Shown in pieces: positions 1 through 8,921 of a DNA stretch of 64,000 bases; position 1 is the stretch's first letter; the number at the start of each line of letters is the position of its first letter. The notes below the pieces were generated by a model that was not told the origin of the DNA, ran no database searches, and saw only the letters and a list, made by a program, of their open reading frames with translations. The position numbers were made by a program, and so were the translations under genes. Origin of the DNA: Ignavibacterium sp. (GTDB lineage Bacteria > Bacteroidota > Ignavibacteria > Ignavibacteriales > Ignavibacteriaceae); contig JBBFMB010000001.1 in assembly GCA_037478755.1 (NCBI GenBank), forward strand, positions 2,178-66,177, in the 5' to 3' direction.

Positions 1-212
1 ATCACTTCACCTTCTAAATCTTTGTAGTCGCTTCTAATTATCAGCTTATAAGCATCACCGAATTCATATTTATCGAGTTTGTAAGATACTTTTTGTCCAT
101 TTACGGAAAATGTGCTGGTAATTGGATAGTACTCACCAAATACTGATTTAAAGTATGATAATAAAAACACTATCACGAGTGAACTTAACCATAGAATAAA
201 TGATTCTTTCAT
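1..212 (-). CDS. Partial hypothetical membrane-anchored protein (runs off the left edge)
   Basis: ATG at 212 opens MKESFILWLSSLVIVFLLSYFKSVFGEYYPITSTF..., with no stop before position 1; hydrophobic N-terminus. Not in the ORF track. Confidence 0.7.
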   Translation of the reverse strand, partial: MKESFILWLSSLVIVFLLSYFKSVFGEYYPITSTFSVNGQKVSYKLDKYEFGDAYKLIIRSDYKDLEGEV

Positions 213-243
213 GTTCTGAAATATTTTTTGAACAAACATAAAT

Positions 244-293: not shown

Positions 294-1466
294 TCAGAAA
301 GATGTGCCGAGTTTAAATCTGAGGTTTACAAATATTTTCGTGAATCCTATTTTGCCCGCATCAGTTCTGGAAATACTTGCTGAAGGACCAATTGCAAATG
401 CACTAAAGCCCCATCCTTCCATGATTTTCTGTACAAGCAAATTGATATTATACTGAGGTTGTCTGTATTTACTTGAAGGCATTGCATCAAATTGTAGATC
501 AAAAGTGCTACCGGCAAGAGACATTTCTCTGAATCCAAATCCGAAATGGAGTTCGTCTAAAAATTTTGCAACATAAACTTTTCCTCTTGTTGAGCCAAGC
601 ACCGAAACAGGATAACGAAATTCCCAATTGAGATAAGAATCATTGTTATGAATAACTCTTGCCTGATATTTTACAGAGCCGTCATCATTTAATACAACAG
701 TGCCTTCAGTTGGTTTTAGATAGCTGTTTAATTTTATTTGTCCGATTTCAGTTGTGGCTTTAAGATAACCAAATTCGAAAAAGTTGCCGAAAGGAATTGT
801 GTAGTAAACCTGAAATCCCTGACTGAAAATCAGATTATTATGATTTTGCTCTTTAACAGGTTCAATCATTGCATCAATATGATTGAACATACCTGCACGA
901 ACTCCGAGGATATGAAAATTCGCTTCGAAGAAATTTGTTTCGAGCGGACCGGAGTAAGGGGTTCCAAAACCAAAAGACAATCCAACATCCTGTTTTAACG
1001 AAACTCCCAGTCTTTCTCCTCCTTGCAGCTGAAGAAACGGATTGATATATCCAAGAGTGGGAGAGATTTGAGTTTTTGTTGGAGGTTGAAGTACCTTTCC
1101 GAATCTTATCTTTTCAATCACACGAGTGAAGACACTTCCGTAATGAATATCTTCTTCAAGATTAATCTTGAATGGATAAGTAATAATTCTTGCTCGCAGT
1201 TCTGGCTGCAATGCAAGCATTGGATATAAAGCGCCCTTAATAGAAATAGTTTGATTATTAGCATCTCTCAGGTCAACTATTATTTCTGCTTTCGGATCAG
1301 GCGGATCAATAAACAGAGCTTCCTGAATCTGAATAAATAAGCTGTCATCAAGCGGCTCCATTTGATAATACCTGATTTGTTCATCTTCTTGCTGAGCAAA
1401 TGACAAACTCAGAAAGAAAGATGAGACAATAAACAACACAGCAGAAATCAGAACAGTTTTTTTCAT
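294..1466 (-). CDS. Exported protein, probable outer-membrane beta-barrel with an N-terminal periplasmic region
   Basis: Sec signal peptide (..SLSFA/QQ); amphipathic Gly/aromatic-rich strands in the C-terminal two thirds; ends VNLRFKLGTSF (BAM-type terminal Phe). Confidence 0.65.
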   Translation of the reverse strand: MKKTVLISAVLFIVSSFFLSLSFAQQEDEQIRYYQMEPLDDSLFIQIQEALFIDPPDPKAEIIVDLRDANNQTISIKGALYPMLALQPELRARIITYPFKINLEEDIHYGSVFTRVIEKIRFGKVLQPPTKTQISPTLGYINPFLQLQGGERLGVSLKQDVGLSFGFGTPYSGPLETNFFEANFHILGVRAGMFNHIDAMIEPVKEQNHNNLIFSQGFQVYYTIPFGNFFEFGYLKATTEIGQIKLNSYLKPTEGTVVLNDDGSVKYQARVIHNNDSYLNWEFRYPVSVLGSTRGKVYVAKFLDELHFGFGFREMSLAGSTFDLQFDAMPSSKYRQPQYNINLLVQKIMEGWGFSAFAIGPSASISRTDAGKIGFTKIFVNLRFKLGTSF

Positions 1467-1487: not shown

Positions 1488-2435
1488 TTACTTTGAAAAA
1501 TCTGTGAAGAAAAATGAATCACCTACCTGAACGCGATCTTTTGTTCTTTCATCAACAGCAGTGAAGAAAAAGTTTACTTTGTATCTTCCATCTGATTCAC
1601 GAAGATTTCCGTTCTTATCTAACCAATCATCAAATGCAGATGATGTTGAAGCAATCTTCAATGAAACATTGTAAATCAGATTTCCATTGCTGTCTTTAAC
1701 TGGTCCTGTGACACTTATCGGACCATTCCAGTTAATCTTTAACTGATCAGGTCTGTTATCAATTACTGTTACTTTGAATACAGTAATGCGCTGCAATTCC
1801 TGAACATAAATATCACGCGCATTCATTTTGGTCGTAACTTTTTCAATTTTTATTTCAGGAGGTTTATTAGGAATTACTTTTATCCGATCTTCCTGTGAAC
1901 CAAATTTTACTACAACCTCTGTCTGATCTGTTAAATCAAATTTTCGTTCTTGTCCGGCAGGAATTACTACAATTGGTTTACTTCTGTCACGAGGATCATA
2001 AATTTCTACAGGAACACTTCCGGTGTTTGATGCGAGATTCCATGTATATTGAATAAAAGTTTGTTTTGAAGAAATCGGCAATGGCATTAATGTTTGTTCT
2101 TCAACAACAGGTTCTTCTTCTTTTGGCGGAGGTAATTCCTGAAGTTTTGTTTGAACTTCCTGAAGTTTCTGGTTTAATGAAGCTAACTTCTTTTTAAGTT
2201 CTTCATTTTCAACGGGAAGATTTTGATCAATCTTTATATCGAACTTCAAACCAAGTGCATACAATGAATCAATAAGAGTTACTAATGAATCACGAACTTT
2301 TTTATCAACAGTTTCTTCTTCAAGAGCAACACGACGTAAATCTAAATCTGCTCCTTTAAGAGCAAGCACAGTAATCACAAAAATGTAAAGCACCTGGTAA
2401 ATAACGAATTTACTATCTCGGTTTTTGTAAATCAT
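1488..2435 (-). CDS. GldM/PorM-like single-pass inner-membrane protein (divergent, short)
   Basis: N-terminus KFVIYQVLYIFVITVLAL parallels the GldM TM (RQKMINLMYLVFIAMLAM, recalled) with K9, Y17, I21, L24, A25; followed by a coiled coil, a PPP linker and beta-rich Ig-like periplasmic domains. Confidence 0.55.
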   Translation of the reverse strand: MIYKNRDSKFVIYQVLYIFVITVLALKGADLDLRRVALEEETVDKKVRDSLVTLIDSLYALGLKFDIKIDQNLPVENEELKKKLASLNQKLQEVQTKLQELPPPKEEEPVVEEQTLMPLPISSKQTFIQYTWNLASNTGSVPVEIYDPRDRSKPIVVIPAGQERKFDLTDQTEVVVKFGSQEDRIKVIPNKPPEIKIEKVTTKMNARDIYVQELQRITVFKVTVIDNRPDQLKINWNGPISVTGPVKDSNGNLIYNVSLKIASTSSAFDDWLDKNGNLRESDGRYKVNFFFTAVDERTKDRVQVGDSFFFTDFSK

Positions 2436-2444
2436 TTTACTCTC

Positions 2445-3434
2445 TTATTTCTTTACAACAATTGATTCGAGATATTTTAATCCGGTTAAAGTTTTTTCAT
2501 CAGATAGAGAATTGCTTGCCTGCTGTATAGAATTTGCGAGCGAGCTTAATTCCTGAATTTTCTGACTGCTTAAGGTATCAATCTGATTTATTTTTTCTGC
2601 AAGCATAGAGATTGATGCGAAATTCTTATGCATTATTTCACTAAGCTTTGCTGAATGCTCTATTAAAAGCTTATACTTTTCCAAATCAGCTAATGATAGA
2701 TTTGGTGCAGATACATTATTACCACCTGCAAATTGATTTAATTGCTTCATCAGATTTTTTGAATTCTCAATCTGAATTCTTGAAAAATATTTTTCACGAA
2801 TATCTTCTACGTGATTAACTACATTCTGAAATTCTACGCCAAGCTGATCAAGCACAGGTTCAAATAATTTTCCGATTGCTAAAACAATTAATGCTTTAAC
2901 TTCAAACGGAACAGAAAGTCCAAGAAAAATTTCTTCACCAAGCTTAATACTAATTAAAAGAATTGCAGCACCAATTAAAGGCAGCGCAGTTGATATACTG
3001 TCAATTACACTAGTGTATGAACTTATAATTCTGTCGATTGTTGCACTCGCGGGAGTTCTGATAATTTCGAGTTTTAATTTATTGAACGCAAGAAAAGCCA
3101 TAAAGACAAAGAAAGCATAAGTTAAAACAGGAAGCCACCAGAAACTATATGGTGAAATTTCTTCCTGAACCGGCTGCCAGTTTGGGAATAATGCTCTTGC
3201 AAGATCGACGGTTACATTTCCAAGAATTGGAACGGTTGACAAATCAAGAAAGAAGGAAAGTATTAGTGCAGCAAATGAAATCAATGCGGGCTTGAATACA
3301 ACTGAAAACTGAATATTTCTAACTGCAGATTTAGTGTATTCTTCAAGCTCTCTTTCAAGCTCATTATTTGTTATGTCAGGATTAAGAAAATCCCTTGTGT
3401 TGTCTTTGGGTGGTTTAACAGCTTGAGTTACCAT
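2445..3434 (-). CDS. 4-TM ion-motor subunit-like protein (GldL/PorL- and MotA/ExbB-like) with a C-terminal coiled coil
   Basis: Four hydrophobic segments; TM3-TM4 read LPLIGAAILLISIK...FEVKALIVLAIGKLFEPV; helical heptad-rich cytoplasmic tail. Confidence 0.55.
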   Translation of the reverse strand: MVTQAVKPPKDNTRDFLNPDITNNELERELEEYTKSAVRNIQFSVVFKPALISFAALILSFFLDLSTVPILGNVTVDLARALFPNWQPVQEEISPYSFWWLPVLTYAFFVFMAFLAFNKLKLEIIRTPASATIDRIISSYTSVIDSISTALPLIGAAILLISIKLGEEIFLGLSVPFEVKALIVLAIGKLFEPVLDQLGVEFQNVVNHVEDIREKYFSRIQIENSKNLMKQLNQFAGGNNVSAPNLSLADLEKYKLLIEHSAKLSEIMHKNFASISMLAEKINQIDTLSSQKIQELSSLANSIQQASNSLSDEKTLTGLKYLESIVVKK

Positions 3435-6670: not shown

Positions 6671-7708
6671 CTATAATCCTGTTCTTAAAAATCTTGGTTC
6701 TTCAAGAGTAAGCATAATTGAAATTCTGTGTGAGTCTGGTAATCTGTCAATTTCAGATTCACTGAACCGTGCAAACGAGTAATCAATATTCAGTTTTGGT
6801 AATTTAACTCCTGCACCGACAGTAAATTGTTTAACATCATTATATCCACCGCGAACATATATAAGATTTTTGAAAGTATATTCTAATCCTGCGTGCATAT
6901 CAAAACTTACCGGACCCAAATTAAATTGTGAAGCAAATCTTCTGTTCTCAAATCTGACATCAAAATCCAGAGCTGGCATTATATAGCCGCCAAGAAACTC
7001 AGTTAACTTATAAGCTGCACCAAGCTTCAAAGTGGGTGAGACAAGTTCATTTCTGCCAGTGCTCCACGCAACCAGTGTAGTAGTTGCATCCTGAAGATTT
7101 GCACCAAGATAAAGATTTTCATAAGGTGTATAAAATGCTCCAACATCAAATCCAATTCCTGTTGCACTGTATTCTGCTAAAGTTCTTCTGATAACTTTCG
7201 CATTAACTCCCCAATAAAAATTATCTGATTGTCTTTTTGCAAATGTTAAATAAAATGCCCAATCCTGATTGCTGAATTCAGTAATGCGGCTGTAATCTAA
7301 TCTGTCATCACGAATATCAATTACACCATCTCCGTTTGCATCATAAAGTGCATTTCTCGTATCTGGAATACCATCAACACCCAAACGCATTACACTTAGT
7401 CCAAAACTCATATCTGTGCTGAAAGGAATTGCAACTGCTCCATAATCATAATTAACAAGATTTCCGAATTGTTCAGAGTGCATAAGTGCAATTTGAGGAT
7501 AATTCAGATTTGCTAAACCAGCCGGGTTGTAGTAACCTGAAGTTACATCGTTTGCAACAGCAACAAAAGCTCCGCCCATACCAAGTGCTCTTCCTCCAAC
7601 GCCCAAAGCCATAAACTCGCCAGCGTATTTTGCGAAAACAGTTTGTGCGTTAATTGTTGCAGCAGTTGAGAATAAAACAACTAATATTAAAAAGATTTTA
7701 GAGCGCAT
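6671..7708 (-). CDS. PorV/PorQ (FadL-like) family outer-membrane barrel, T9SS-associated
   Basis: Signal peptide, then ALGVGGRALGMGGAFVAVANDVTSGYYNPAGL, the N-terminal signature of PorV/FadL-like barrels. Confidence 0.75.
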   Translation of the reverse strand: MRSKIFLILVVLFSTAATINAQTVFAKYAGEFMALGVGGRALGMGGAFVAVANDVTSGYYNPAGLANLNYPQIALMHSEQFGNLVNYDYGAVAIPFSTDMSFGLSVMRLGVDGIPDTRNALYDANGDGVIDIRDDRLDYSRITEFSNQDWAFYLTFAKRQSDNFYWGVNAKVIRRTLAEYSATGIGFDVGAFYTPYENLYLGANLQDATTTLVAWSTGRNELVSPTLKLGAAYKLTEFLGGYIMPALDFDVRFENRRFASQFNLGPVSFDMHAGLEYTFKNLIYVRGGYNDVKQFTVGAGVKLPKLNIDYSFARFSESEIDRLPDSHRISIMLTLEEPRFLRTGL

Positions 7709-8066: not shown

Positions 8067-8921
8067 ATGAAAAATGTTATTCTGATTCTGATAGCTTTAC
8101 TCATTCTTAATGAACACTCATCAGCACAATTACTTAACAATAGTTTTGAGAATTGGGATAATGGAGAAGCTGTCAACTGGTTGTCTAATGATATTTCTGG
8201 TGACCTGGTGTCTCAATCATCAGATGCAGTTGAAGGAAATTCTTCTGTGAAGTTACAAGTTGGAGATTTTGCAGGTGTTGGATTACCTGTTTTTATTACC
8301 TCAGCAGATCTGGATGGTAATGGTCATCCTGTAAATCAAAAATATCAGACACTTAAAGGTTCTCATAAATTATCTGCTAACGGAAATGATCAGCTTTGGA
8401 TTTCTGTGGTGATGGCAGTGAATGATTCAACGACTTTGGGTGGTGGAATGATCTACCTCAATGAAGACAAAAGTGAATGGACTGAATTTACTGTTCCAAT
8501 TCTGTATGATGAAAATAGTCCAGTTCCTCAAATGGCTTTTGTTACTATTTTCCTGCTTGATACTTCTACTGGTTCGGCAAATATCGGTTCATTTGCACTG
8601 ATTGATAATTTGCGATTAGAAAATACGACATCTGTTGATGAAGAAATAAAAAGTGCCTCAAGTTTTAAGTTAGATCAGAACTATCCAAATCCATTTAACC
8701 CAAGCACAAAAATTAGCTGGAATACTTTTTCAGCTGCCCGTAACACTTTGAAAGTCTATAATATACTTGGAAATGAAGTTGCAAAACTGGTAGATGAATA
8801 CAAACCAGCAGGCACTTACAGTGTTAACTTTGATGCAAAGGGATTACCAAGCGGAATTTATTTTTATACTCTCCAGGTTGGGAACCAAGTTCAAACTAAG
8901 AAAATGATTTTAATTCAATAA
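8067..8921 (+). CDS. Secreted protein with a CBM-like domain and a T9SS type A C-terminal sorting domain
   Basis: Signal peptide; LLNNSFENW start; C-terminal FKLDQNYPNPFNPST...GIYFY...KKMILIQ; AGGAGG RBS. Confidence 0.85.
   Translation: MKNVILILIALLILNEHSSAQLLNNSFENWDNGEAVNWLSNDISGDLVSQSSDAVEGNSSVKLQVGDFAGVGLPVFITSADLDGNGHPVNQKYQTLKGSHKLSANGNDQLWISVVMAVNDSTTLGGGMIYLNEDKSEWTEFTVPILYDENSPVPQMAFVTIFLLDTSTGSANIGSFALIDNLRLENTTSVDEEIKSASSFKLDQNYPNPFNPSTKISWNTFSAARNTLKVYNILGNEVAKLVDEYKPAGTYSVNFDAKGLPSGIYFYTLQVGNQVQTKKMILIQ

Follow-up and report, generated by a model that had tools for sequence, protein, structure and literature searches.

ORF315, a 315-residue protein encoded in a 64,000-nucleotide stretch of Ignavibacterium sp. 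DNA (hereafter the window), is best read as the subunit at the centre of an ion-coupled envelope complex, itself undescribed, which would resemble GldM in its logic without belonging to the GldM family. We give this reading a probability of roughly 40%. Together with the products of its two neighbours, ORF329 and ORF390, ORF315 would constitute an undescribed three-gene module spanning the envelope, in which it would be the single-pass inner-membrane subunit. ORF315 is the middle gene of the triad (order ORF329, ORF315, ORF390), which amounts to ~1030 residues in total. A fourth gene on the same strand, ORF258, lies outside the conserved core, and a homolog of it follows the triad only in one other genome (L044). 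Features are listed in Table 1.

Table 1. Positions of the features discussed (window coordinates unless a contig or locus is named)
Feature	Position	Strand	Description
ORF315	1488..2435	-	Intact 315-aa ORF; bitopic inner-membrane protein
ORF315 residues 1-27 (stretch flagged earlier)	2355..2435	-	9-residue cytoplasmic N-terminus and single TM helix (AlphaFold2 helix 8-26)
ORF315 residues 7-33, family signature	2337..2417	-	D7-x-K9-F-[IV]-I-Y13-Q14-x-L-Y17-I-F-V ... K27-G28-A-[DN]-[LI]-[DN]-L33; from the alignment and the tally of 54 representatives
ORF315 residues 27-33	2336-2357	-	Invariant juxtamembrane segment, K-G-A-[DN]-[LI]-[DN]-L
ORF315 Ig-like domain 1	1869-2099	-	Residues 113-189; AlphaFold2, Foldseek, VIA
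ORF315 Ig-like domain 2	1491-1868	-	Residues 190-315; AlphaFold2, Foldseek, VIA
ORF329	2445..3434	-	9 nt upstream of ORF315; 4-helix inner-membrane protein with cytoplasmic coiled-coil tail
ORF390	294..1466	-	21 nt downstream of ORF315; signal peptide, predicted outer-membrane beta-barrel, C-terminal Phe
ORF258, 5' part	3..239	-	Polytopic membrane protein running off the window; full gene L002:1640-2416
UPF0164-type outer-membrane protein	6671-7708	-	N-terminal motif looks PorV/FadL-like
284-aa protein	8067-8921	+	Type IX C-terminal sorting domain
SprA	G000:C94:3097-9471		Same genome
Solo ORF315 gene, family f6	L040:5998-6915	-	Second ORF315 copy
Solo ORF315 gene, family f6	L046:5998-6957	-	Second ORF315 copy

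The original prediction had quoted residues 1-27 of ORF315 and aligned them without gaps to the N-terminus of Flavobacterium GldM. The quoted residues match the window translation exactly (MIYKNRDSKFVIYQVLYIFVITVLALK; nt 2435-2355, minus strand). Relatives of ORF315 were collected by a full-library HMMER search, which yielded 83 cluster representatives (clustering at 50% identity), and by a word-indexed search, which gave 983 proteins; among the best 120 of these 983, the named ones were nearly all 'hypothetical protein' from Ignavibacteria. Residues were tallied in the 54 representatives that retained the N-terminus, helix positions being scored in 51. K9, F10, Q14, L16 and Y17 were found in 51/51 representatives, D7, I12 and Y13 in 50/51, and K27 and G28 in 54/54. 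The two residues singled out earlier, K9 and Y17, are therefore conserved in every homolog scored, so the outcome named in the original prediction as refuting it did not arise; D7, Y13 and Q14 have to be added to them.

In its longer form the family signature reads [RK]-D-x-K-F-[IV]-I-Y-Q-x-L-Y-I-F-V-[IV]-x-V-x-A-x-K-G-A-[DN]-[LI]-[DN]-L. Residues 7-33 are by far the best-conserved part of ORF315, whose mean column identity over the whole protein is 33% in the family alignment, and between residues 9 and 20 every face of the helix is near-invariant (tally of 51). Comparison with the ortholog from another genus (L044) identified differences in 16 of the 27 motif codons, 16 of them synonymous and none non-synonymous, which shows that the constraint on this motif acts on the protein. 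K9, Y13 and Y17, whose side chains are protonatable or hydrogen-bonding, share a single helix face in the half towards the cytoplasm. The near-invariant D7 sits at the helix N-cap, before the hydrophobic core, and no acidic residue was present between F10 and L26 in any of the 51 representatives, in agreement with the earlier claim that the helix holds no Asp of the MotB/ExbD type.

AlphaFold2 modelled ORF315 (m90d770aa6f4c) with a mean pLDDT of 79, rising above 90 for residues 125-315. The TM helix is followed by a linker and then by two beta-sandwich domains. The linker (~residues 30-112), the most variable region of the family, is partly Pro-rich or disordered, with a heptad Leu pattern at 80-101; residues 33-99 were modelled as short low-confidence helices only, with a disordered stretch after them. 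Foldseek and VIA-align matched the model to generic tandem Ig/cadherin-like folds at Z 7-8 (maximum 8.3), and GldM/PorM was not among the rows that they listed for the Ig-like domains.

Searches by sequence placed ORF315 in no named family. No Pfam or NCBIfam domain matched it at E <= 1, and Pfam, NCBIfam and PADLOC returned nothing meaningful on all four operon proteins. A profile search of PDB sequences gave weak beta-domain matches only, with no GldM/PorM; no match to the GldM, MotB, ExbD or TonB families was found, and the clusters recovered from the ESM Atlas were all unnamed ones of Ignavibacteria. Several points made beforehand were borne out by these results: ORF315 has no OmpA-like peptidoglycan-binding domain (Pfam, NCBIfam) and it has fewer periplasmic domains than GldM. 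Nor does it match an unrelated known family (Pfam, NCBIfam, PADLOC and PDB sequence searches), which the original prediction would have taken as a refutation. Readings of ORF315 as an MCE/PqiB-like protein, an HlyD-type adaptor or a FecR-type anti-sigma protein were dropped in view of its Ig-like folds and 9-residue cytoplasmic tail.

The Ig-like region of ORF315 also recurs in the giant proteins P0283 (1818 aa), P0303 (1644 aa) and P0307 (2359 aa), and in P0315 (790 aa). The first three contain 6 to 12 matched stretches each, the best corresponding to ORF315 domain 2 (~residues 217-306), and P0315 contains 8, the best at ORF315 residues 116-141, the start of domain 1. We take these large proteins to be surface proteins, and the recurrence then suggests a mobile repeat module, not a system-specific one.

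The membrane partner, ORF329, carries two invariant blocks. One is in TM3 (T149-A-x-P-L-x-G-A, with T149, A150, P152, L153, G155 and A156 invariant) and the other in TM4 (G172-x-S-V-P176-F-E178-x-K180, with G172, S174, V175, P176, F177, E178 and K180 invariant). The AlphaFold2 model (pLDDT 65) puts E178 and K180 about halfway along helix 4, and this helix extends into a long cytoplasmic one. The ionisable residues conserved within the membrane are then K9, Y13 and Y17 of ORF315 and E178 and K180 of ORF329, and we infer that the two sets contact each other. The 'GEE' sequence of ORF329 (E167/E168) was rejected as a proton carrier because it is not conserved, relatives having GPI or GPQ. In the periplasmic loop of ORF329, V68, P69, G72, F83, P84, W99 and P102 are as invariant as residues 27-33 of ORF315; this loop could be the docking site for the ORF315 juxtamembrane segment.

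ORF329 had no Pfam match, PF01618 included. Its best Foldseek rows were ExbB, TolQ and PomA, all sub-threshold (E 0.04-0.5); the ExbB and TolQ rows included TonB- and TolA-bound complexes, and chemoreceptor coiled coils also appeared among the rows. A wide VIA-align search with the model recovered generic helical bundles only, and hhalign of the ORF329 family against the genome's own MotA/ExbB proteins gave a probability of 0.06%.

The triad is syntenic in 6 genomes (L039, L041-L045) belonging to three Ignavibacteria families, down to 29-33% identity. ORF329 is 95% identical to IALB_2935 of I. album, which marks the source as an Ignavibacterium near that species. The ESM Atlas clusters nearest to ORF390 are named 'outer membrane protein', which we treat as a lead only. 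A natural secreted fusion protein links the two downstream genes. The metagenomic representative P0317 begins with a signal peptide and an ORF390-family N-terminal domain (36% identity, E 1e-22) and continues with an ORF315-family Ig pair (35% identity, E 6e-30); a second representative, P0322, has the same build. Both fusions are devoid of the ORF315 membrane helix and of the ORF390 barrel. The P0317 fusion argues that the C-terminus of ORF315 is periplasmic and acts together with the N-terminal domain of ORF390.

Genomes of family f6 harbour a second, solo ORF315 gene, located directly 3' of genes for a HisKA_3 histidine kinase and a LuxR-type response regulator. The solo copy shares 91% DNA identity with the triad copy, and this identity is confined to the coding region. 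In the fragmented f6 assemblies, many of the ORF315-family matches are incomplete and sit at the ends of contigs.

We propose that the ORF315 helix, probably as a dimer, would be buried in an oligomer of ORF329, in the manner of the central helix of a 5:2 ion-driven motor. The polarity would be that of GldLM, with Lys and Tyr on the inner helix and the carboxylate supplied by the subunit around it. Protons flowing through the ORF329/ORF315 interface would move ORF315, and this movement would be passed by the flexible linker and the Ig domains to the ORF390 N-terminal domain at the outer membrane. A linker that is variable and flexible fits pulling or tethering better than a rigid rotating shaft.

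Several observations count for such a motor. The three genes are adjacent and inherited together, with synteny maintained down to 29% identity. The invariance of the ORF315 helix on all faces, as in GldM, fits a buried and functionally active helix; in TonB and TolA only one helix face is conserved. The invariant mid-helix P176, E178 and K180 of ORF329, and its long helices running from the membrane into the cytoplasm, are in its favour too. The ExbB, TolQ and PomA rows obtained with the ORF329 model, although sub-threshold, point the same way, and so does the P0317 fusion of the ORF390 N-terminal domain with the ORF315 Ig pair. By analogy, E49 of GldL and R9 of GldM form a functional, essential pair in GldLM (PMC8986121; bioRxiv 10.1101/2022.01.28.478170), which supports the importance ascribed to R9 in the original prediction, and the same polarity may apply here. 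A motor A-subunit whose partner is bitopic, an ExbD/TolR gene being absent, has a precedent (PMC12204202).

Other observations count against it. Neither subunit is significantly similar, by sequence or profile, to any 5:2 motor family. The ORF329 model is modest, its motor-like matches are sub-threshold and VIA-align found generic bundles only. The variable, partly disordered region between helix and Ig domains would make a poor rigid shaft for rotation, and the solo ORF315 copy behind a two-component system hints at roles without ORF329.

The last point also bears on the alternative that survives best, that of a trans-envelope complex which is static or signals and is not a motor. ORF329 would then act in the membrane as a sensor or scaffold whose output is its coiled coil, ORF315 would provide the link to the barrel, and the conserved helix residues would serve tight packing only. 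No homology to any motor family is seen, as this alternative would have it, and the ORF315 linker is flexible and variable. Some ORF329 homologs carry the source label 'methyl-accepting chemotaxis protein', in line with the chemoreceptor rows in Foldseek; in f6 genomes two-component genes flank the module, and the solo paralog follows a kinase and regulator pair. Nevertheless, an invariant mid-membrane E178/K180, presumably facing a helix lined with Lys, Tyr, Gln and Tyr, would be costly unless functional, and with ~9 cytoplasmic residues ORF315 cannot itself signal to the cytoplasm. We regard a static or signalling complex as possible, if on the unlikely side.

Next in order comes the view that ORF315 is a peripheral transducer similar to TonB or TolA, its helix lying outside an ExbB/TolQ-like pentamer of ORF329 and its C-terminal domains pulling on the ORF390 barrel. 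The layout agrees with this: like TonB, TolA and the vWA 'force transducers' (PMC12204202), ORF315 has a helix, a variable and partly Pro-rich linker and a globular C-terminus aimed at an outer-membrane barrel, here a dedicated one. New transducer families with other C-terminal folds have been described (PMC12204202), and the best, sub-threshold structural rows for ORF329 are ExbB and TolQ, TonB- and TolA-bound complexes among them. However, ORF315 has no TonB_C domain and its C-terminus is Ig-like, not vWA; no His or Ser occurs at the positions of the SHLS/His motif of TonB/TolA in the 51-54 representatives; and its helix is conserved on all faces, not one. The vWA 'transpore helix' proteins keep a conserved Asp (PMC12204202), which ORF315 does not have. 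Moreover, the module contains no ExbD/TolR-like gene, so that the ring would lack a central helix. A peripheral transducer is therefore, in our judgement, distinctly unlikely.

ORF315 also shares traits with MotB/PomB, ExbD and TolR. It is single-pass and directly follows a polytopic partner with helices extending into the cytoplasm, its K27-G-A-D-L-D-L segment sits at the position of the MotB plug helix, and ORF329 shows sub-threshold structural likeness to ExbB, TolQ and PomA, the partners described by PF01618. It differs from MotB, ExbD and TolR in having no Asp inside the helix (D7 being at the N-cap) and no OmpA-like or ExbD-type periplasmic domain, and ORF329 differs from MotA, ExbB and TolQ in not matching PF01618. 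Elsewhere the genome encodes two canonical sets of ExbB-ExbD and two of MotA-MotB, each with the usual Asp.

A third alternative takes the resemblance to GldM at face value: ORF315 would be a genuine GldM/PorM homolog that has diverged far, and with ORF329 it would form the motor for type IX secretion in Ignavibacterium. Similarly to GldM/PorM of the GldL5GldM2/PorLM motor (TIGR03517, PF12081), ORF315 crosses the membrane once, has its N-terminus inside and leaves very few residues in the cytoplasm, and a basic residue 9 and Tyr 17 are invariant in each family. In both, the conserved residues gather in the half of the helix nearer the cytoplasm and cover all its faces, and neither helix contains an intramembrane Asp. 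Both genes follow one for a polytopic partner whose membrane part holds an invariant Glu and whose cytoplasmic tail is a coiled coil. GldM (~510 aa) has three Ig-like periplasmic domains (D2-D4), and ORF315 (315 aa) has two predicted ones, which match Ig/cadherin folds in general. Y17 of GldM is said to be functionally important, as reported by Hennell James and colleagues in 2021.

Searching 151 Bacteroidota genomes with the Pfam model GldM_1st located real gldM genes in 36 of them, and 20 were read with the gldL upstream. R9, Q10, M12, I13, Y17, L18, V19 and A25 were invariant in the 20 GldM sequences; Q10 and I13 are replaced by F10 and Y13 in ORF315. The Flavobacterium-type GldM of L024 begins MAGGKLTPRQKMINLMYLVFIAMLALN. 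The N-terminus given in the original prediction agrees with it at 26/27 positions; position 26 is L where the prediction had M, and with L the gapless match to ORF315 gains one residue. In this match M1, Y17, I21, L24, A25 and L26 are identical and R/K9 and N/Q14 are conservative, so that K9, Q14, Y17, A25 and L26 of ORF315 parallel R9, N14, Y17, A25 and L26 of GldM.

Statistics gave this alignment little weight. Full-length hhalign of the ORF315 family against the 20 GldM sequences produced a 28-column match (probability 13.5%) and nothing in the N-terminus. With the first 40 residues, hhalign returned the gapless register (15-27 to 15-27) as the best local one, at P = 0.029 and a probability of 1.7%. 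A gapless profile of the GldM core ranked ORF315 34th of 3314 N-termini of its own genome (ORFs of at least 80 residues), and HMMER with a GldM N-terminal model ranked it 606th. A basic residue 8 positions before a Tyr ([RK]x7Y) was present in 78/807 N-terminal hydrophobic segments of the genome (~10%). The pattern [RK]x4[NQ]x2Yx7A, defined after seeing the match, occurred in ORF315 only among the 807 anchors. The likeness is real, but its weight as evidence of kinship is marginal; it is statistically inseparable from that of an ordinary membrane anchor and cannot support a case for homology. These insignificant statistics and the ~10% sharing the K/R-x7-Y spacing would allow for coincidence alone, the N-terminus then being an ordinary anchor, or a signal peptide that is cleaved off, without any special function. 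Such a coincidence is hardly credible, since the helix is the best-conserved part of the protein across 54 clusters and changes synonymously only, while ordinary anchors and signal peptides drift freely.

Further differences set ORF315 apart from GldM. A profile search against the GldM/PorM models, suggested in the original prediction, yielded no match to GldM_1st to GldM_4th or TIGR03517, and no significant sequence or profile similarity was found. The predicted layout and the generic Ig-like matches indicate that the conserved helical D1 domain of GldM (~190 aa), the domain that defines the GldM Pfam family, is absent from ORF315, which has a short variable linker instead. ORF329 has four helices, GldL two; its invariant E178 is not alignable to GldL E49, no TIGR03513 match and no GldL signature were found in its membrane part, and hhalign of its family against 19 GldL sequences matched the cytoplasmic coiled coil only (probability 21%). 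No GldK/GldN ring genes accompany ORF329 and ORF315; a dedicated outer-membrane barrel gene follows them.

Distribution separates the two as well. SprA is present in this genome, alongside secretion-tail proteins, and in 100/101 sampled Ignavibacteria genomes. GldM_1st and GldL were found neither in this genome (86% complete) nor in the sample (0/101 each, for GldL above the cut-off); GldK and GldN were likewise not found in this genome, the GldN search being one without a positive control. A literature search found no paper on GldL/GldM in Ignavibacteria. The ORF315 family is present in this genome and in 12/101 of the sample (families f1, f6 and f17), and the ORF329 family in this genome and the same 12, plus one weak match. 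The ORF315 family occurs in 0/36 GldM-bearing genomes of the phylum sample, and a 100%-complete genome from the source's own family lacks it too. Its distribution is thus unrelated to that of SprA, and its patchiness marks the module as an accessory, patchily inherited unit. The UPF0164-type and sorting-domain genes lie 4-6 kb from the module, a linkage not kept in other genomes.

On these grounds we rejected the idea that the module supplies the type IX motor which the class as a whole is missing (12/101 versus 100/101 for SprA, and absence from the complete same-family genome), and it probably does not serve Ignavibacteria in general as their type IX motor. True GldM kinship does have a best register that is the gapless one, the five parallel residues, the unique if post hoc pattern and a genome with SprA and secretion-tail proteins and no detectable GldL/M/K/N to recommend it. 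With P = 0.03 only, rank 34/3314, no GldM domain match, no D1, a four-helix partner lacking a GldL signature and this distribution, it seems very improbable. What stands of the GldM-type reading is its logic, a base on the inner helix and an acid (E178) on the partner; kinship is not supported, in view of insignificant profiles, the missing D1, the four-helix partner, the lack of gldK/gldN and 12/101 against 100/101.

Returning to the ion-coupled complex we favour, one may go further, tentatively, and regard ORF329/ORF315/ORF390 as an independent lineage of minimal ion-driven trans-envelope machines, a possible but rather doubtful extension. It would have a 4-helix ring with a proton-binding Glu and a central ORF315 dimer with Lys/Tyr/Gln/Tyr replacing the Asp, and would be wired directly to its own barrel, with neither a GldK/N ring nor a TonB-type adaptor. 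To our knowledge, either a phenotype or homology led to the discovery of every known envelope motor family (MotAB, ExbBD, TolQR, AglRQS, ZorAB, GldLM); a motor-like architecture with buried charges and no detectable homology would, if true, widen the known design space. The sampled Ignavibacteria, nearly all with SprA and secretion-tail substrates and none with a recognisable GldL/GldM, raise the question of what powers type IX secretion, to which the module can at most be a lineage-specific answer. If true, its three genes would constitute a compact system converting proton flow into work at the outer membrane.
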